From the NCBI GenBank assembly GCA_965218095.1, contig OZ244587.1, positions 256,001 to 320,000 on the forward strand: a stretch of 64,000 bases of DNA. The letters are read 5' to 3'. Both the position numbers and the translations under genes were made by a program. This document shows positions 29,064 through 37,142 of the stretch, in pieces. Source of the DNA: Candidatus Poribacteria bacterium. GTDB taxonomy: Bacteria > Poribacteria > WGA-4E > PCPOR2b. Under the pieces are notes generated by a model that saw only the letters and a list, made by a program, of their open reading frames with translations, did not search any database and was not told the origin of the DNA. Position 1 is the stretch's first letter. Every line of letters begins with the position of its first letter.

Positions 29064-31235
29064 CTACTGCCCAATTTCCACAATCCATCCTTTCGTCTTG
29101 GCAGGTTTGTACTCCCCGCCGCGCAGATATTCCGAGGTATGCCATAAGCACAGACGTTTTCCATCAGGCAGCCATGTGACGGAGGTCAAATTGATTGTCG
29201 TCCGCGCAATTGACAGGGCGCGATTTGTTTGCAGATCCAGAACCCACACCTTCCATCGCAGTCCCATGCAATCCTCCCGCTCCATGTATGCAAGCCGATT
29301 TCCTTTCGGCGACCACGCGGGTGAGGTATGTTTGAGAATTTGCGCTTGGTTTGGGGCGTCCACAGAGATAACATGGAGTTGTTTATCGAGCGTCTCATCA
29401 GGTCTGGGATTTCCCCGGAGGACATAAGCCAGTTGTGAGCCATCAGCCGACCATATAATCTGCTTTACGCGCTGAGACTGTGTTGGGATTTCCTCTAATT
29501 TTGTGCCATCAATATGATGAATGTGAATGCGGGAATGCCCTGATTTGTAGTGCTGATGGTCCAGGCCGATCGCGATATGCTGCCCATCAGGGGACCATGA
29601 TGGCGGGTCCAGATAACTGAACGATCCAACTCGTCCATTGATAGGAATCCGTGCAATCGGTGTCAGACTCGTTTGGTCAATGTTAATCCGATAAACAATG
29701 TCAACCCCTTCTTCCCAGCGTCTAAACGCAATTTGATTCGCTGTCGGCGACCATGCGGGCGCGTCTCCCTGCACCAGCTTAATCAAACGCAAAGTCTTCC
29801 AATCAATAGCCCACACATAGCTTTCATTTGACTCGTCGTAAGCCTCAAAAGCGATAAAGTTACTATCGAGCGACCACGATAGATGCGGATTATAAAAGAG
29901 CCCCTTGTGAAGTTTCCGAAACTGCTTTGCGCGACCATCCGCCATCCAGAGCTCGTTTGCTCGCCAATACTGTCCAGAAAGGTTGGTTCGCTTCAAAAAC
30001 GCAATCGTTTTGCCGTTGGGGGACCAGTGAGGATATTCCGCTCCTTCAATCAGCGTCAATGTCTGGTTGTTCGCGCAGATTGCAGTGTTGAACTGGATGT
30101 CATCCGTTTTTACGAACACACCAATCCCAAACCCATCGATCCAACCCACCTCACCGTTTGGGAGCTCAACCTGATACCATCCCTCCGTTTGGTTCAGAAT
30201 CGGGAGTTCCACGCCATCGTTGAGTGTCAGTCTGACAGCAGATTCCCGATCTTTACCCGTATAAACGGGAACTTGATCTCGCACGACCGTTCCGATTAGA
30301 TGTTCGTCCTGCTGGGCTTGGGGCGGCTCAGTATCTTGATTGGTAAAGGCGTACACATACCCATCATACGATGTCACGTAAAGCACCCCATCCGAGATAG
30401 CTGGGGCAGAATCGATAAAGCCTTTCGTTTTGTAAGACCAGATCTCCTTTTGGGACTCGATGTCTAAGGCATGGATTTGACTATCCCGTGCACCGATGTA
30501 CACTACGCCGTTGGCGGTTGCGGGGTAACTATAAGTATAGGGTGTATGGCTTCTCCAAAGATCGACCTGATGTTGCGGTTCGATGGGGCGCAACTGCCCT
30601 TGCGAACAACCGTATTCAACCCCGTTGATACGCACCCGTCCCTTTGGCTGCGATTCCAGTTCGCCTGTCATCGCATTGATAACATGGATCTTCTGGGTAT
30701 ACGCTCCGATATAAAGTCTTCCGTTCGATAGAACCGGAGGGGAATCCATCCATGTCCCCGACTCAAAATCCCAGAGCTGCTCACCGGTTGCAGCATCAAG
30801 TGCGTACACACGATTGTCTCGTGCACTGAAATAGACGCGATTATTCCAGACGGTTGGCGCATATTGAATCGCCCCGCCGGCTTTGAAGTTCCATTTGAGT
30901 CCCCACTGCTTTGCGTCGAGGGCGTATAGGACGTGGTCAGTCGATCCAACGTATACCACGCCGTTGGCGACGGCAGGGCTCGCTTGGATCTGTCCTCCTG
31001 TCTTGTATTTCCAAAGCAGCTTGAGCGGCGGTTTAAGGGTCTGATCTGGGCTCTTGCCTGAGAAGTGCAGGTCATACATGAACATGGGCCAATCCTCAGG
31101 GTGGGTGGGAGAAGCGGTAACACGCTGTTGATTTTCGGGCTGGTTTTCAGTTCCGGAAGATTGTGGCGTATCCTGGGATTGGCATCCCCATAGCAGGAAG
31201 GAACTCATGAAAAACAGAACAACCGTTCGATTCAT
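29064..31235 (-). CDS. Lipoprotein with PQQ-type beta-propeller, SH3 and TolB-like repeats
   Basis: LLWGC lipobox; DWPMF, SPAVANGVVYVGS; WYQVELPNGEVGWI; PAWSP repeats. Confidence 0.88.
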   Translation of the reverse strand: MNRTVVLFFMSSFLLWGCQSQDTPQSSGTENQPENQQRVTASPTHPEDWPMFMYDLHFSGKSPDQTLKPPLKLLWKYKTGGQIQASPAVANGVVYVGSTDHVLYALDAKQWGLKWNFKAGGAIQYAPTVWNNRVYFSARDNRVYALDAATGEQLWDFESGTWMDSPPVLSNGRLYIGAYTQKIHVINAMTGELESQPKGRVRINGVEYGCSQGQLRPIEPQHQVDLWRSHTPYTYSYPATANGVVYIGARDSQIHALDIESQKEIWSYKTKGFIDSAPAISDGVLYVTSYDGYVYAFTNQDTEPPQAQQDEHLIGTVVRDQVPVYTGKDRESAVRLTLNDGVELPILNQTEGWYQVELPNGEVGWIDGFGIGVFVKTDDIQFNTAICANNQTLTLIEGAEYPHWSPNGKTIAFLKRTNLSGQYWRANELWMADGRAKQFRKLHKGLFYNPHLSWSLDSNFIAFEAYDESNESYVWAIDWKTLRLIKLVQGDAPAWSPTANQIAFRRWEEGVDIVYRINIDQTSLTPIARIPINGRVGSFSYLDPPSWSPDGQHIAIGLDHQHYKSGHSRIHIHHIDGTKLEEIPTQSQRVKQIIWSADGSQLAYVLRGNPRPDETLDKQLHVISVDAPNQAQILKHTSPAWSPKGNRLAYMEREDCMGLRWKVWVLDLQTNRALSIARTTINLTSVTWLPDGKRLCLWHTSEYLRGGEYKPAKTKGWIVEIGQ

Positions 31236-31319
31236 TGACGACCTCTTTCCATTTATCGTAGGAGTTGCGCACTTGGACAAAAAATAGGTTAATAGTGCAG
31301 AGTGGCGAGTGGCTGAGTG

Positions 31320-31529: not shown

Positions 31530-31670
31530 CTGCCCCTGCTTCATGCAATTTCGCCTCTCACGTATCGCAAAGCGCAACCAGTTCCATGCCAACAAACTTA
31601 GCACCCTGCGCAAATCCCATTCCGCGTCCGACCCCAACGACGCCAACGTGGATCTTATTTTCGTTTGTTT
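31530..31670 (-). pseudogene. Gfo/Idh/MocA oxidoreductase N-terminal remnant
   Basis: KIHVGVVGVGRG...MELVALCDT*EAKL. Confidence 0.7.
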
Positions 31671-31705
31671 TCTTTGTAGTGAGGTTGTCTCTGACTACGA
31701 CTTGG

Positions 31706-33613
31706 TCAATTTTGTGGGACGATTTCAGTCGATAAAACTTCGATGAGTTCATCTAAGTGGACATGTCGGAAAAACTCCGAAAGCCGCTTCTGCTTCGGTT
31801 TCATCGGGAGCAAGATGAAATCTGAGCAACGCCCCTGGATGGATTCAAACACCTTGCGATAGGCTTGGCTTGTGGCATATCCGACAACCAGAGCATAGTG
31901 GTCACCGTGCTTATCAAGATAGGCGTTGAACCGATCAACGGCTAGCTGTATCTGCGCCGTGTTTCTGGGAGACAACTGGAAATCATAGCGCACGACCGGT
32001 TCCTCAGATTCAAATTCTTCCGGCACGGGCCCGTAGAGCCCCGAAAGGGTAATTTTGTGAATCGCTCGTTGATTCTCCCCGAAGGCGGTCTGAAGCTTGG
32101 TGTTGATGATAGTGTGTGTACGTGAAAGTGAATACGGCTTTTTCCCTGCACAGGGAATTGTCAAAAGGACCCTTTTATCCTTTGGAGGCGCGTAATTTGA
32201 TGGAATGGCAAAGGAATCCGGCGTATAATCCAGCGAAATAGTCGGCTGTTCTTTCTGAAGATATGAAGCCGTTTCCTCTTTCAAAAGTGCCGGGAAAAGT
32301 TCCAATTGATAAGGGTTTCTCTCGACCGTACGCCGATTTTCTGACGTGGAGACATCCACAACCGTTTTTGCCATCCGGCTGGCAAACGCTTCATTATTTT
32401 TGATTAACCAGTCCACCGCCTTGCGGATGCCCCGCCCTGTCGAAGCATGATGGACTAATTCTTCGAGTGCGTCATCGGCTTCAATGGCGTCCTTCATACG
32501 AGAAAGCAGCCCCGCTTCCAACTCGAAATTATGCAAGGCGATCGCCGCATAACATTCGCTCTTGTATTTTCCGGTCGAAGTCCGTTTATAGCTTGTCGCT
32601 TCCATTAACGTGCGTTGCATTTCATCAAGTGAAACCTCCCGGCAGATGCGGCAGGTACAAGTCAGCTCGTCTAATTCCATGAGTTTTCGCTTCGCTCGCG
32701 TCAGTGAATCTGAATAGTTGAGGCCACGTGCTGCTTGAATATAGCTGGTGCTGTCAAAGCTATCGACACCCATGTAAGCCAGTATAGGTGCCAATTCACC
32801 GGAGACGCCGAAGGCGTGGATGGGGGTATGATGCCGCTCTGAATCTGGAATCGCTTTTTGAACTCCGCAGATCCGCTCAAGCACCGCCGAATCCTGTTTC
32901 CCCCGCAGTGGTACTAAAGAGCCGACCGCAAGTCCAAATGAGGGCAGTACGCCCAAAAGCCGGTCGAAAACCTGCCTGACATAACTCTCAATATCCGATT
33001 GGGATTGTCCATGACAGCAAACGTATAGAAAGGGAGGGCGCGCTTTGGCTGTGAGCAACGTAGCCACGCGACAGGCATTCTCCAGACTTAGGTTCATCCG
33101 TTTCTCAGCTTCGGAGCGTTCTAAACCCGGTGGTAACGGATAATCTAAAGAAGCAATAATTTCTCCCCCAAAGTCTTCTTGAAGTGCGAGAATATCATCG
33201 GCTTCGGTTTCCTTTTCAATTCCAAATTCCTTTAGGTCTAACCCTGTGTTGTAAAGCAACTTAAATCCACCAGAGTCGAGAAACAGGGGGGCATTATAAA
33301 CACCGTTTACTTCTTGATACCATTCGCGCATTGTTTTTTGACGCCATTTTCTTAAATGTTTGCCCTCAAACGGGAAGTCCAAAAAGTGCAGGACTTGGGA
33401 TAACATCGGCGCATCGTGCTTCATCAAATCACGGAGAAGGTACTTCCAGATGCCACCGCCGCGCGGTGTTGAACCGGTCATAAATGCAATGACAGGGTAC
33501 AGAATCGGCGTTAATAAAGGTGACAACGGTTCGCCATTGCGTTGCAAACGAAGTTCACCGATTCTACCGCCTTTTCTCTGAACGGTTGTATGGTAAGTTG
33601 GAACTGTGTTCAT
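31706..33613 (-). CDS. tRNA-guanine transglycosylase-like protein (archaeosine-TGT/DpdA-like) with DUF5591-like C-terminal domain
   Basis: LDSGGF, LDYP, CHG, AVGSLVP, IHAFG, GVDSFDS, Zn site CTCRIC...HN; C-terminal PCAGKKPYSLSRTH, SGLYGPVPEE. Confidence 0.88.
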   Translation of the reverse strand: MNTVPTYHTTVQRKGGRIGELRLQRNGEPLSPLLTPILYPVIAFMTGSTPRGGGIWKYLLRDLMKHDAPMLSQVLHFLDFPFEGKHLRKWRQKTMREWYQEVNGVYNAPLFLDSGGFKLLYNTGLDLKEFGIEKETEADDILALQEDFGGEIIASLDYPLPPGLERSEAEKRMNLSLENACRVATLLTAKARPPFLYVCCHGQSQSDIESYVRQVFDRLLGVLPSFGLAVGSLVPLRGKQDSAVLERICGVQKAIPDSERHHTPIHAFGVSGELAPILAYMGVDSFDSTSYIQAARGLNYSDSLTRAKRKLMELDELTCTCRICREVSLDEMQRTLMEATSYKRTSTGKYKSECYAAIALHNFELEAGLLSRMKDAIEADDALEELVHHASTGRGIRKAVDWLIKNNEAFASRMAKTVVDVSTSENRRTVERNPYQLELFPALLKEETASYLQKEQPTISLDYTPDSFAIPSNYAPPKDKRVLLTIPCAGKKPYSLSRTHTIINTKLQTAFGENQRAIHKITLSGLYGPVPEEFESEEPVVRYDFQLSPRNTAQIQLAVDRFNAYLDKHGDHYALVVGYATSQAYRKVFESIQGRCSDFILLPMKPKQKRLSEFFRHVHLDELIEVLSTEIVPQN

Positions 33614-33726
33614 AGTATGGTGTTTTTCCGCCGGTCCATTTAAGAACTAGCGATGCAATGGGATTGAGCAGAATCCGTTCTAATTATCGAATCCATAGTG
33701 TCTTCTATGCAATTAGTTTCGTATCT

Positions 33727-34338
33727 TCAGAGGGACGAAAAAATGAACTGCTTGAGAAAAGTGGTTCTTGCATAAAAAGCCCTCGTTATACTGCCATGTC
33801 CCTTGCCTTTGGTCCTTGGCTGAATATATACTCCCATTTTTCCGGTTAAAGTTGAAAAACCCTTCGTGCGAATTGTCTCTCTTACGAGATCATAATCGGT
33901 TCTGATTTGATCGTAGATCTCGGGATTATCTAAGTCGAAGGCTTTCACGGTATAAAGTATAGATTGCTTTTCTTGTTTGCTCTCCCAAATTCTGGCAGCA
34001 ACGATTAGTTTCCTCAATTTGGCTAATAAATGGCTATTCTCAAAATCAGTACTTTTAACATTGTAGGCATCAATCATCGTAATTGCCATTGTTTCCTTGA
34101 CCGTCAGCTTTCCACTTTTTAGATACTTCAGAGGAATGATTTTTAGTTCCCAAGAGCCAAAATTTGGAGATTGAGAGGAGTTAATTGGTAAATTAAGGTG
34201 ACGTTCAAGAACGTGCCCTGCCCAACCTTTATTTGGTTTTCCTTCTTTGAAAACCGTTACCTCGTATTTATCAGCCAACAATCGAAGGTCTTGCCCGATA
34301 AGCTCAGACAATTTCAAGAGTGCTTCTTGTCTCTGCAT
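33727..34338 (-). CDS. MutH/Sau3AI-family endonuclease-like protein (single domain)
   Basis: NKGWAGHVLE..L...NS...PNF..WELK.IP, KETMAIT, YIQPRTKG, RAFYARTTFL. Confidence 0.85.
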   Translation of the reverse strand: MQRQEALLKLSELIGQDLRLLADKYEVTVFKEGKPNKGWAGHVLERHLNLPINSSQSPNFGSWELKIIPLKYLKSGKLTVKETMAITMIDAYNVKSTDFENSHLLAKLRKLIVAARIWESKQEKQSILYTVKAFDLDNPEIYDQIRTDYDLVRETIRTKGFSTLTGKMGVYIQPRTKGKGHGSITRAFYARTTFLKQFIFSSL

Positions 34339-34366
34339 ATTCAATTCCTCTACAATGAACGCCTAA

Positions 34367-35368
34367 TTACTCCGCGGGTAGCTCATTGAGGCGCTTTTGA
34401 GCAATCTGGTTATACAATTCCTCTTTCTCAATCATCACCCATTTTCGGTTATACTTTTCCGCGGCGATTCCGGTTGTCCCGGTCCCGGCAAATGGGTCGA
34501 GAATAAGGTCATCTTCATTGGTTCCCGCTAAGACGAGCCGCTCAACCACTGCCAACGGCTTTTGCGAAGAGTGTTTTCCATATTTTCGTTCGGAGGGCTT
34601 AGTCAGCGGAATTTCCCACATATTCCGCATCTGCTTGTTACTGTTCATCGCTTTCATCGTATGATAATTGAACGTCCAATTTTTTGCCTTCTTACTTTCA
34701 TTGTTGACTGCCCATAAGATGAACTCGGTAGACTCCGTAAACATCCGACAAGTAATATTGGGCTGTGCATTCGGTTTATACCAGACAATTTGGGTAATAA
34801 TCCGCCGGTCAAATATATTTTGAAGAATAAACCCAAGTGTAAAGATGCTGTGAAACGACCCAAAAACAAAGATATTCCCGTTTTCCTTGACAACTCTCAG
34901 GACTTCGGTGACCCAATCGAGTGTGAACTGGAAATATTCGTCTTTTGAAAAAATATCCCAACCTTCCTGCATGGTAATATGGGAACTGAACGCCCAGCCC
35001 AACCCCCTCTTTTGGGACATATTGAACGGAGGGTCAGCGATGCAGCAATCGAAGACGCTGTCCGGCAAAGAAGGCAGAATACTCAGGCAATCGCCGCATA
35101 AAATCTGATTGACGGAAAGATTTTCAAGTGTCGTGTCCGAAGATAAGGTGAGAACGGCTTTCGATGGGGCTGTCTGTATCTGATTTTCTGACGCGACTGT
35201 GGACTCCGCTCCCCGATCTGGGTCGAGAACAGGCTTCGGTAGGAGTGGATGGACTCCCGTTGCAAGATATTGAATCAGTTGGGCTTTATTTAACAACGAG
35301 TATCCTCTTAATCCACGTTTTTTCGCTTCTTTTCTCAGATCTTTGTCTCGCATTTGATGGAAATTCAT
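34367..35368 (-). CDS. Beta-class amino DNA methyltransferase (DpnA/MboIB-like) with N-terminal Rho-N/HeH-like domain
   Basis: ADPPF, WYKPNAQPNITCRMFTESTEFILWA, FNY..MK..N.NKQMRNMW, GKHSSQKP, ILDPFAGTGTT. Confidence 0.92.
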   Translation of the reverse strand: MNFHQMRDKDLRKEAKKRGLRGYSLLNKAQLIQYLATGVHPLLPKPVLDPDRGAESTVASENQIQTAPSKAVLTLSSDTTLENLSVNQILCGDCLSILPSLPDSVFDCCIADPPFNMSQKRGLGWAFSSHITMQEGWDIFSKDEYFQFTLDWVTEVLRVVKENGNIFVFGSFHSIFTLGFILQNIFDRRIITQIVWYKPNAQPNITCRMFTESTEFILWAVNNESKKAKNWTFNYHTMKAMNSNKQMRNMWEIPLTKPSERKYGKHSSQKPLAVVERLVLAGTNEDDLILDPFAGTGTTGIAAEKYNRKWVMIEKEELYNQIAQKRLNELPAE

Positions 35369-35402: not shown

Positions 35403-37142
35403 TCAATCTTTTGATTCACCACAATCCATCTGTTGACGTAGTACCGTCGTTGCTTCTTCGTCTACCGACAGCGTTCCCTCGTCCAACACCACGCCATACG
35501 CATCCCGTGCTGCTTCAAGCGAAACCTTGCTGTTCTTGACGTCGCGGGCCACATCGGCCGGAGGACGTAAAAGCGGGTCGCCCCATCCCCCACCGCCAGC
35601 CTGACGATGATAAATCCGCTCACCGGCCTTCATTGATGTGGAGATCATTGTCCGCAACACTTCATCGCTCTCATTGGTGTGGTGGAGCAGGTTGATCGAA
35701 CCCCTACCCGGCTTCCCACCGTAGAGCCCGTAGGGCAGGTGGTCCCGTCGGTCAGACCGGATCACCAGATGCGCTTCGCCAGACAACAACTGCCATTCGC
35801 GTTCAAGGCCCAAGCCGCCGCGGAATTTTCCGGCACCGCCACTGTCCTGTACATACCCGTAGCGTTCGATGTGCACCGGATATTCGCATTCCGCCTGCTC
35901 AATTGGGATATTGCTCGCAACGTTGGCGGGGTTGCACAGTCCGTCGTTTCCATCACGGTCGGGGCGCGCTCCCCAAGTACCGGACATCAGTTCGTAGTAG
36001 ACATATGGCGTCCGATCCTCCCGCTGCCCGCCAATGATAACCAGGGTATTGCCCCCCTCGCCGGCGGCTAAAACACGGTCCGGCAGCAGCCCGGCTAACG
36101 CGCCAAAGACGGTGTCCGCCAACCGAAACCCGGTGATGCCGCGCATTGAGGAAGCCGCTGGCATGACGCCGTGAACCACTGTGCCTTTCGGCGCGATGAT
36201 TTCCAGCGGCTTGAACATGCCGGCCGTGTTCGGAATATCCTCACGCATCACCGAGCGGACGCATAGCGCAACCACCGATGCAGTGAAGGAGAGGGTATTG
36301 TTGATGGCGCCACGGACCTGTGGGTTTGTGCCGGTAAAATCAGCGGTAAGGGTGTCACCTGCCACCGTCATCGTTACCTTCAGGCGCACGGGTGGCCCGC
36401 CGACGCCATCGCTGTCCATGTAGTCCGTGAAGGTATGGCTGCCATCGGGCCAGGAGGCGATTTCTGCGCGGACGAGACGCTCGGTATAATCGATGAGGTC
36501 AACAGCACAAGTGGCAAACGTTTCCAGCCCATAACGTTGGATCAGCGTGTGCACCGCGCGCTCGCCGATGTGGCAGGCCGCCAGTTGCGCGCGTAAATCT
36601 CCGATAGCCATCTGCGGCACCCGGACATTCGCACGCAGGAGCGTGAAAATTGCCTCATCGGGTTCGCCACCACGATACAGTTTCAACCAGGGGATGCGGA
36701 AGCCATCCTGGAAGATTTCGGTATTATCACAGGCAGAGCTGCCAGGCAGGCGTCCGCCCAGGTCCAAATGATGAGCGGTGCTCACGGCGAATGCCACACG
36801 CTGGTCATCCCAGAAGACGGGTTTAACGATGAAGATATCCGGGATGTGCATCCCGCCGTCAAAGGGGTCGTTGAGGATAAAAACATCGCCGGGCTGTATA
36901 TCTCCGTCGAATTTCTTAAACAGTGTTTCCATCGCGAAGGGGACCGAACCAAGATGGAGGGGAATCGTGATGCCCTGCGCAATCATTTCGCCATTGGTGT
37001 CACACAGAGAGGTCGAGTAGTCCAGACAGTCCCGCACGATGGTCGAGTAGGCAGTGCGATATAGGGCCATTGCCATCTCATCAGCTGCTGATGCCAGTGC
37101 ATTCTGCATAATCTCGCGTGTAATCGGATCGATCTCAGACAT
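35403..37142 (-). CDS. Hydantoinase B / oxoprolinase family protein
   Basis: RTAYSTIVRDCLDYS, NDPFDGGMHIPD, HHLDLGG, DSGGAGKFRGGLG, GGGGWGDP. Confidence 0.93.
   Translation of the reverse strand: MSEIDPITREIMQNALASAADEMAMALYRTAYSTIVRDCLDYSTSLCDTNGEMIAQGITIPLHLGSVPFAMETLFKKFDGDIQPGDVFILNDPFDGGMHIPDIFIVKPVFWDDQRVAFAVSTAHHLDLGGRLPGSSACDNTEIFQDGFRIPWLKLYRGGEPDEAIFTLLRANVRVPQMAIGDLRAQLAACHIGERAVHTLIQRYGLETFATCAVDLIDYTERLVRAEIASWPDGSHTFTDYMDSDGVGGPPVRLKVTMTVAGDTLTADFTGTNPQVRGAINNTLSFTASVVALCVRSVMREDIPNTAGMFKPLEIIAPKGTVVHGVMPAASSMRGITGFRLADTVFGALAGLLPDRVLAAGEGGNTLVIIGGQREDRTPYVYYELMSGTWGARPDRDGNDGLCNPANVASNIPIEQAECEYPVHIERYGYVQDSGGAGKFRGGLGLEREWQLLSGEAHLVIRSDRRDHLPYGLYGGKPGRGSINLLHHTNESDEVLRTMISTSMKAGERIYHRQAGGGGWGDPLLRPPADVARDVKNSKVSLEAARDAYGVVLDEGTLSVDEEATTVLRQQMDCGESKD

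Follow-up and report, generated by a model that had tools for sequence, protein, structure and literature searches.

A predicted transglycosylase-ArcS fusion protein beside a type II restriction-modification pair in a sponge-associated Candidatus Poribacteria genome

Three neighboring genes in a Candidatus Poribacteria genome raise the question of whether a DNA methyltransferase, a MutH-like nuclease and a protein with the tRNA-guanine transglycosylase (TGT) fold act as one DNA modification system. The genes lie in a window of 64,000 nucleotides, by which we mean the whole stretch analyzed here, corresponding to genome positions 256001-320000 of a 6.35-Mb single-contig assembly from a sponge symbiont (genome G000). 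An earlier reading, made from the sequence alone, described three intact, closely spaced minus-strand genes, and the open reading frame (ORF) list agrees: T (31706-33613, 635 amino acids) is a TGT fusion protein, R (33727-34344, 205 amino acids) is a MutH/Sau3AI-like nuclease and M (34367-35368, 333 amino acids) is a methyltransferase, all intact and on the minus strand, with gaps of 113 nt between T and R and 22 nt between R and M. Our analysis points to two units rather than one. M and R are probably an ordinary type II restriction-modification (R-M) pair, and T would be a separate two-step 7-deazaguanine enzyme. The three-part hybrid framing is therefore to be downgraded, the R-M pair being ordinary and T the noteworthy part.

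Domain structure of T

T is predicted to be a fusion of an ArcTGT-like transglycosylase with an ArcS C1 (DUF5591) domain, lacking a PUA domain. The TGT catalytic domain occupies residues 1-419 (32357-33613, minus strand) and contains Asp113 in the stretch LDSGGF, Asp287 in GVDSFD and a zinc site at C319, C321, C324 and H361. It is followed by a disordered linker of residues 420-454 (32252-32356, minus strand), where the predicted local distance difference test (pLDDT) score falls below 50 and the family alignment is gapped and variable in length. The C1-type domain spans residues 455-635 (31709-32251, minus strand) and carries both PCAGKKPYSLSRTH and LSGLYGPVP. Pfam assigns TGT to residues 106-387 and DUF5591 to residues 472-596 but detects no PUA domain, and the chain ends 39 residues past DUF5591, with no C2 domain either.

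Among NCBIfam models, only the superfamily model tgt_general accepts T (58.6 bits against a cut-off of 47.6). The more specific models all fail: ArcS (NF040592) gives 90.9 bits against 440, TgtA (TIGR00432) 79.5 against 350, DpdA (NF041059) 25 against 200 and bacterial Tgt 24.5 against 306.75, and the sole PADLOC match is DpdA at 23.4 bits. A separate housekeeping tgt scoring 550.9 bits lies at genome position 4888672, and the proposal that the 635-residue protein is a TGT-fold base-exchange enzyme distinct from housekeeping Tgt is thus borne out.

The residues expected of both activities are conserved across the family. In an alignment of 34 members with 30-73% identity, D113, S114, G116, D157, D287, C321, C324 and H361 are invariant and C319 is conserved in at least 90% of sequences. 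In the alignment with Pyrococcus horikoshii ArcTGT (1iq8), the counterparts of the aspartate and zinc residues lie in DSG, GVDLFDS and CSCPVC. In the C1 domain of the same 34 members, P493 and Y494 are invariant and C488, K492 and S497 reach at least 90%, and a 41-sequence alignment of the C domain agrees on these five positions. The ArcS C1 catalytic motif is given in passages of two papers as PC-X3-KPY-X2-S-X2-H (PMC10516641, PMC5699537), and PCAGKKPYSLSRTH fits this pattern.

Structural comparison leads to the same relatives. By sequence, the only solved relatives of T are P. horikoshii ArcTGT 1iq8 (E 3.6e-11) and AF0587 (2q07), the latter matched by the C domain in a profile comparison (E 3.4e-12). 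The AlphaFold2 model of T has a pLDDT of 90.2 and a predicted template modeling score (pTM) of 0.88, and Foldseek ranks ArcTGT 1j2b and 1iq8 best for the full model (E 2.7e-20) in a list swamped by Tgt entries. For the C-domain model (pLDDT 93.7), the only significant Foldseek match is 2q07 (E 5.1e-6), and YaaA is not listed. Since Foldseek returned AF0587 only and no YaaA, a direct structural link from this domain to DpdC is not shown. An indirect connection runs through DUF6884, a family with motifs CxxxK and LSAxxG that the Pfam authors relate to YaaA/PF03883 (passages in PMC11701544), PF03883 being the DpdC family (passages in PMC12839542). An hhalign comparison of the C domain with a cluster of the DUF6884 proteins found alongside small TGTs gives a probability of 81.5% (E 1.1e-5) with C-x3-K and LSGxxG in register, and two DUF6884 proteins of G000 match PF03883 at 27.4 and 21.5 bits, under the cut-off.

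In the literature searched, with supplementary tables outside that search, a TGT-C1 fusion from bacteria or haloarchaea is nowhere described, and DUF5591 came up only in work on phage ArcS2. T may be seen as the known chemistry of DpdA plus ArcS2 or DpdC joined in one cellular protein, in a fusion family that is undescribed in that literature. Its members are annotated only as 'tRNA-guanine transglycosylase' or '7-cyano-7-deazaguanine tRNA-ribosyltransferase' and are therefore invisible to defense-system finders.

Neighborhoods of T relatives and the choice between DNA and tRNA

An exhaustive profile-free search found T relatives in 667 cluster representatives at E <= 0.001 and in 104 at E <= 1e-30, many of them full-length at 33-47% identity. 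In addition to the window, we gathered 134 T loci, made up of 15 from named Poribacteria metagenome-assembled genomes, 39 from genomes carrying our own handles and 80 from metagenomes. The T genes that encode 550 amino acids or more, 130 in all, fell into 55 lineages when clustered at 80% identity; shorter T fragments were left out. Partner genes were called by BLASTP against a reference list built from Pfam and PADLOC matches, and partners outside the list go uncounted.

Within 5 kb of T, 13 of the 55 lineages have a gene for preQ0 synthesis or uptake (QueC, QueD, QueE or YhhQ/Vut_1). DUF6884, a TGT of ~415 amino acids and/or a GHKL ATPase occur at the same distance in 16/55 lineages, a count that stood at 20 before we excluded four lineages flagged by a second full-length T (L099, L100). 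DpdJ-like (184.8 bits with PADLOC) or DpdK-like genes are found in 7/55 and a PLD-SNF2 helicase in 1/55, and a NurA-like gene plus HerA directly adjoin T in 3/55. The window-type M is within 5 kb in only three lineages, all Poribacteria. Because T relatives recur with preQ0 supply and with restriction or defense genes, the DNA modification role that the sequence-only reading gave to the 635-residue protein is plausible. No queC, queD or queE lies in the window, as that reading also noted; in G000 the matches to QueC (genome position 1768156), PTPS/QueD (4048180 and 1272827) and a QueE-like protein (4157946) are all outside 256001-320000. In a Poribacteria paralogue group, the PTPS/QueD gene ends 1 nt before the start of T.

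Several of these neighbors make up a recurrent island that consists of QueC-QueE-QueD, T, and DUF6884 followed by the ~415-residue TGT and a GHKL ATPase of ~515 residues. It was seen in metagenome loci L103-L113, L117-L142 and L149-L156 and on haloarchaeal plasmids (L162, L163), and often adds DpdJ-like helicase, DpdK-like PLD, NucS-like or GIY-YIG genes; no description of it was found in the literature searched. The haloarchaeal T genes lie on megaplasmids of two cultured strains, Haladaptatus sp. YSMS36 (NZ_CP119784) and Natrinema sp. SYSU A 869 (NZ_CP082247). They are full-length at 35% identity, annotated only as 'tRNA-guanine transglycosylase', and surrounded by DEAD/DEAH helicase, PLD-like, DUF6884, small TGT and ATP-binding genes. 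These two cultured carriers make the role of T directly testable. Elsewhere, an ORF of 121-124 amino acids stands just upstream of T at L018, L022 and L026, is conserved in both the orthologue and paralogue groups, and has no Pfam, PADLOC or NCBIfam match.

From its conserved residues, the TGT domain would remove guanine through a covalent aspartate intermediate (Asp113/Asp287), with the zinc in a structural role, and preQ0 from the host QueC/D/E pathway would take the place of the base. The tethered C1 domain, judging by its ArcS motif, would then attack the preQ0 nitrile to yield an amidine, an amide or a lysyl adduct, a conversion that ArcS performs on tRNA. T would in this way be a self-contained 'writer' that serves different restriction modules or acts alone.

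A close precedent is in phage. DpdA2 of Vibrio phage nt-1 alone gives dPreQ0 in Escherichia coli plasmids, and together with ArcS2, a C1-only protein, gives dG+ (passages in PMC10516641). Like T, this pair combines a TGT-family exchanger with a PUA-less ArcS C1 (DUF5591) domain bearing the motif, but the phage uses two proteins, whereas T is one chain of 635 amino acids encoded on cellular chromosomes and megaplasmids. In Dpd systems, DpdA and DpdB put preQ0 into DNA, DpdC turns preQ0-DNA into ADG-DNA and DpdD-K restrict (passages in PMC10164549). The logic of guanine to preQ0 in DNA followed by nitrile conversion is the one we propose for T, and further likeness lies in the DpdJ-like and DpdK-like genes beside T relatives and in the alignment of the C domain to DUF6884. 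On the other hand, T reaches only 23-25 bits on DpdA models and fails the DpdA equivalog cut-off. Of the Dpd restriction genes none is in the window, which holds only the type II R-M pair, and the DpdJ/K-like genes occur only beside distant T relatives. We saw no DpdB-like gene next to T, although no search was aimed at DpdB.

A third comparison concerns HerA/FtsK-centered BREX-related systems, which are described in passages of a 2026 paper as recruiting TGT homologues as putative DNA markers, with GNAT+TGT modules (PMC12839542). T resembles these in standing beside HerA in three lineages and in having GNAT genes nearby in two Poribacteria clades. None of their PglZ, DUF6079, STAND or DUF4007 genes was seen next to T, and those passages report no DpdC homologue for them, whereas T has its own putative nitrile-modifying domain. 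The GNAT genes are downstream of T at L042-L050 and upstream at L031, L054, L066 and L075, and are of two kinds, a 164-residue Acetyltransf_1 and a 445-residue Acetyltransf_9 protein; their proximity to T may be coincidental.

ArcTGT (TgtA) and ArcS themselves are the nearest relatives of T in sequence and fold and share its catalytic aspartate pair, zinc site and C1 motif. T differs in lacking the C2 and PUA tRNA-binding domains, in falling far below both equivalog cut-offs and in occurring in bacteria and on haloarchaeal plasmids among defense-type genes. The N-terminal TGT-like domain of ArcS is not known to exchange bases, whereas T keeps every TGT catalytic residue.

This kinship makes it necessary to consider that T is an accessory archaeosine-like tRNA or RNA enzyme that inserts and converts preQ0 and has no relation to the R-M pair, an explanation that we regard as unlikely but as the strongest of the alternatives. 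Its best profiles are those of tRNA enzymes (TgtA at 79.5 and ArcS at 90.9 bits), and its best structural matches are ArcTGT and, for the C domain, AF0587. However, divergent TGTs, including those of clearly defense-type loci, also score best on TgtA, so the resemblance is not an argument for tRNA and the score says little about substrate. Adjacency to QueD or YhhQ suits tRNA equally with DNA. The lack of PUA and C2 domains speaks for DNA, yet ArcTGT stays active in vitro without its PUA domain. Haloarchaea already own chromosomal ArcTGT and ArcS, and their T is an extra megaplasmid copy among DpdJ/K-like and DUF6884/TGT/GHKL genes, which a tRNA role does not readily explain; nor does it explain the direct adjoining of T to NurA-like-HerA in three lineages. 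Within genera the distribution of T is patchy (12/65 genomes in g14, 16/20 in g4, 0/40 in g8), which fits an accessory gene. ArcS has been reported to act even on the preQ0 nucleoside (passages in PMC11298593), which means that the choice of polymer is not set by the C1 domain. With gene neighborhoods, the patchy distribution and the absence of a PUA domain taken together, DNA appears to be a somewhat likelier substrate of T than tRNA.

Several further points weigh against a two-step DNA enzyme and are to be set beside this estimate. For both domains of T the best-scoring model is that of a tRNA enzyme, TgtA for the TGT domain and ArcS for the C domain, and the chain that leads from DUF5591 through DUF6884 to DpdC is indirect and suggestive at most. 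No reference partner lies within 5 kb of T in 16/55 lineages, some of which are on short contigs. Several Poribacteria clades have no defense neighbor of T, and many Poribacteria T lineages have metabolic neighbors only (epimerase, PSCyt2/PSD1, Fe-ADH). A search for T relatives in phage records and IMG/VR found none. The ArcS enzymes also differ in what they add: passages in PMC11298593 report ammonia or amide donors for Methanocaldococcus jannaschii ArcS, and lysine transfer that requires RaSEA for activity for Thermococcus kodakarensis ArcS.

If the two-step reading of T is right, it matters beyond this locus. In the literature covered, 7-deazaguanines of cellular DNA are limited to the dPreQ0 and dADG of Dpd systems, and dG+ and others come from phage or virus DNA. 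A fused exchanger-converter of bacteria and haloarchaea would extend such chemistry to cellular genomes, and T would be a one-gene tool to install such bases. In a bolder form, which we consider possible rather than probable, T represents a widespread family of single-chain 7-deazaguanine writers, each with an exchanger resembling DpdA joined to a nitrile converter resembling ArcS/DpdC. In Poribacteria, other bacteria and haloarchaea, these proteins would furnish chromosomal DNA with bases of the archaeosine type or related ones. Such a writer would be portable across type II R-M, NurA-HerA, DpdJ/K-like and PLD-SNF2 contexts, and in the window it might lay a second, GA-type mark over the GATC sites of M.

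M and R as a unit separable from T

M is predicted to be a beta-class N6-adenine DNA methyltransferase. It matches Pfam N6_N4_Mtase at 169.6 bits over the whole profile and PADLOC MTase_II at 246 bits, and its translation contains FAGTGT as well as the catalytic motif in its N6-adenine form, DPPF. An extra N-terminal region of ~85 residues is present, and Pfam gives a weak SAP match at residues 3-21. The NCBIfam CcrM model scores 222.7 bits, against a cut-off of 830. The sequence-only reading called M 'DpnA-type', which holds at the family level (beta-class N6_N4) only, because the best relative in the PDB is CcrM (6pbd, 165.7 bits) and chains labeled DpnA reach 109 bits. About 25 tblastn matches to the beta-class methyltransferase were seen in G000, which seems rich in R-M genes.

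R is likewise predicted to be an endonuclease of the MutH/Sau3AI family and the restriction half of an R-M pair. It scores 50.4 bits on Pfam MutH, 70.2 bits on NCBIfam Sau3AI (under the cut-off) and 47 bits on PADLOC REase_II, and its PDB matches are Sau3AI 4pxg and MutH 2aoq. R fails both NCBIfam equivalog cut-offs for the mismatch-repair nickase MutH (56 and 39.6 bits against 243 and 229.9). Together, M and R resemble type II systems with a MutH/Sau3AI-family nuclease, in which a beta-class N6-adenine methyltransferase and a small PD-(D/E)xK endonuclease form a recurring pair. They differ from these in that M is nearest to CcrM, whose site is GANTC, and has the extra N-terminal region; and where Sau3AI has two domains, R is a single domain of 205 amino acids with Asn at the first catalytic acid.

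This substitution was examined by alignment. R keeps the E-x-K motif (E-L-K), and Asn ('SPNF') replaces the metal-binding Asp of MutH ('eqDf') and Sau3AI ('kpDm'). The same Asn is found in six of the seven Poribacteria copies aligned, the seventh (L064) having Ser. At least 92 of 120 homologues from the database share it, mostly outside any T context. Being common to both sets, it is not peculiar to the copy in the window.

That M and R form a free-standing type II R-M module on which T does not depend was seen in a survey of 176 Poribacteria genomes, with M counted at E <= 1e-80. M is present in 63 genomes and T in 54, and only 19 have both, leaving 44 with M but not T and 35 with T but not M. 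Genus g8 has M in 31/40 genomes and T in 0/40, whereas T reaches 16/20 genomes in g4. In genus g14, M (13/65) and T (12/65) do not overlap in the genomes sampled, a pattern that may reflect shared ancestry. Of 20 M loci that do not adjoin T, 12 retain an intact MutH-like gene behind M, with the gene order and spacing of the window, three retain fragments and five have nothing of the kind. M is therefore common without T and often keeps its nuclease there, which makes the module autonomous.

The slot between M and T is also variable. It holds the MutH-like gene in the window and at L024, L029, L043, L044 and L046, it is empty at L019, L032, L045, L047 and L071, and at L023, L042 and L073 it holds a DUF6996/DUF6997 protein of 272 amino acids on the opposite strand. 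The latter protein (259-272 amino acids across loci) matches PADLOC REase_II at 106 bits, so two unrelated nucleases pair with one M family. Within genus g11, loci with the same flanks have T with M and R (L043, L044, L046), with M only (L045) or with neither (L048-L050).

In this unit, M would mark host DNA and R would cut or nick the unmarked site. The site may be GATC, a guess from the family of R only. In G000, GATC has the second lowest ratio of observed to expected occurrence among 4-bp palindromes (0.68), after GGCC (0.42), and GANTC stands at 0.88-0.95. The comparison favors GATC as the site of M and R, though weakly and non-specifically, with GGCC being lower still. T beside M and R would then be a defense-island neighbor and not an obligate partner.

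The sequence-only reading instead joined M, R and T in one minimal system, with methylation state and the MutH-like subunit guiding base exchange or excision by T at GATC. We consider this improbable. The three genes share a strand and are tightly spaced, and terminator-like sites in the gaps are not above chance. M and T are adjacent in 16 of the 19 genomes that have both, far apart in two (G075, G076) and on different contigs in one (G048), and the 16 genomes span two related families (f1, f3) and at least five different flanking contexts. The adjacency is old, and because related genomes are not independent samples, we treat it as the outcome of one or a few ancestral events. The under-representation of GATC would fit a joint target. 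As for the suggestion that GATC is a DpdA target, passages on DpdA of phage CAjan give GA and GGC as its targets (PMC7544227), passages on Salmonella DpdA map it within a PvuII site (PMC10164549), and GATC was not found as a target in either. It is speculation that T, with a phage-like GA preference, would also mark the G of GATC, which the GA motif includes. Finally, if R served to bind or target DNA, Asn in place of the catalytic Asp would be in keeping with that, but the same Asn prevails in homologues mostly away from T. Against integration stand the 44 and 35 genomes with only one of M and T, the lack of overlap in g14, the 12/20 loci where M and R occur alone in the same order and spacing, the replaceable or absent R beside T, and the presence of this M in only three of the 55 lineages, all of them Poribacteria. 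At the level of whole systems, PADLOC matched nothing to the triad. The triad is probably a juxtaposition of two separable units in one Poribacteria lineage rather than a new three-part system.

An ordinary R-M pair beside an independent T has difficulties of its own on the R-M side. The closest model for M is CcrM, a GANTC enzyme and not a GATC enzyme, and with Asn at a metal-binding position the nuclease activity of R is not assured. The survival of M-T adjacency in several flanking contexts could mean more than chance neighborhood.

A last alternative, that T is a restriction-type glycosylase that strips foreign DNA of guanine or a modified guanine and puts no 7-deazaguanine in its place, and so an effector and not a writer, appears very improbable: TGT chemistry does start by excising a base through a covalent intermediate, restriction enzymes that act by base excision reportedly exist and nucleases adjoin T in several lineages, but the TGT domain is conserved along with a nitrile-modifying C1 domain and its motif, a combination that makes sense only if preQ0 is installed, and preQ0 synthesis or uptake genes are near T in 13/55 lineages.

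Flanks of the locus and other transglycosylase genes of the genome

The flanks named by the sequence-only reading, hydantoinase B and a decayed Gfo/Idh/MocA gene, are as described. Hydantoinase B (HydB, 35403-37142) lies 34 nt upstream of M. Downstream of T, a remnant of 48 codons (31534-31677, minus strand) corresponds to residues 2-49 of a relative's 417-residue protein (81% identity, E 3e-10, tblastn), and the 417-residue protein that follows T in relatives is Gfo/Idh/MocA by Pfam. The first intact gene past the remnant encodes a 738-residue PQQ/PD40 beta-propeller protein (29064-31280), and a Pfam scan places an MBL-cupin protein and an unassigned 359-residue protein among the further neighbors of T in the window. 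The MutH-like gene was said to be AT-richer, and R indeed has a GC content of 39.5% against 50.0% for the genome, with 45.4% for M, 48.8% for T and 58.1% for HydB. A repeat search around the cassette for mobile-element boundaries returned short repeats at chance level only and no flanking repeats. Promoter and terminator counts matched those of shuffled sequence, so that a single operon of T, R and M is neither supported nor refuted.

Four sponge metatranscriptome runs, all from the same study, yield short contigs that map on parts of T and M, some with 99-100% identity and 0-1 differences. Most of R (about 33243-34186) has no contig cover, which proves nothing about its expression. Metatranscriptome libraries can contain DNA and contigs alone cannot demonstrate a transcript; the matches on T and M are compatible with expression but are not proof of it.

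In relatives, M-R-T is flanked by SDR, amidohydrolase and Gfo/Idh/MocA genes. In G000 these three lie together at genome positions 867737-871442, ~580 kb from the window, with frame breaks in two of the three, and the block kept together is M-R-T plus the first 49 codons of Gfo. The displaced genes and the Gfo remnant point to a local rearrangement, or to duplication followed by loss.

G000 carries further TGT loci outside the window. A second T copy at genome positions 1272773-1275081 (contig C1, L080) is 69% identical to T, with PTPS/QueD directly upstream. It is broken by a single TAG in frame and by a change of frame around residue 568, IS4/5-type transposase-like ORFs flank it, and it is probably a decaying paralogue. 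At 674029-679261 (L164), a DUF6884/YaaA-like gene is followed by PIN_4, a 282-residue protein, an AAA ATPase (BrxC/ORC-like) and a TGT of 393 amino acids, and at 3554559-3559625 (L165) the order is DUF6884, NurA, HerA and a TGT of 344 amino acids. The latter locus is a split counterpart of the NurA-like-HerA-T arrangement of other lineages. Besides its housekeeping tgt, G000 thus has three candidate 7-deazaguanine systems, namely T, L164 and L165.

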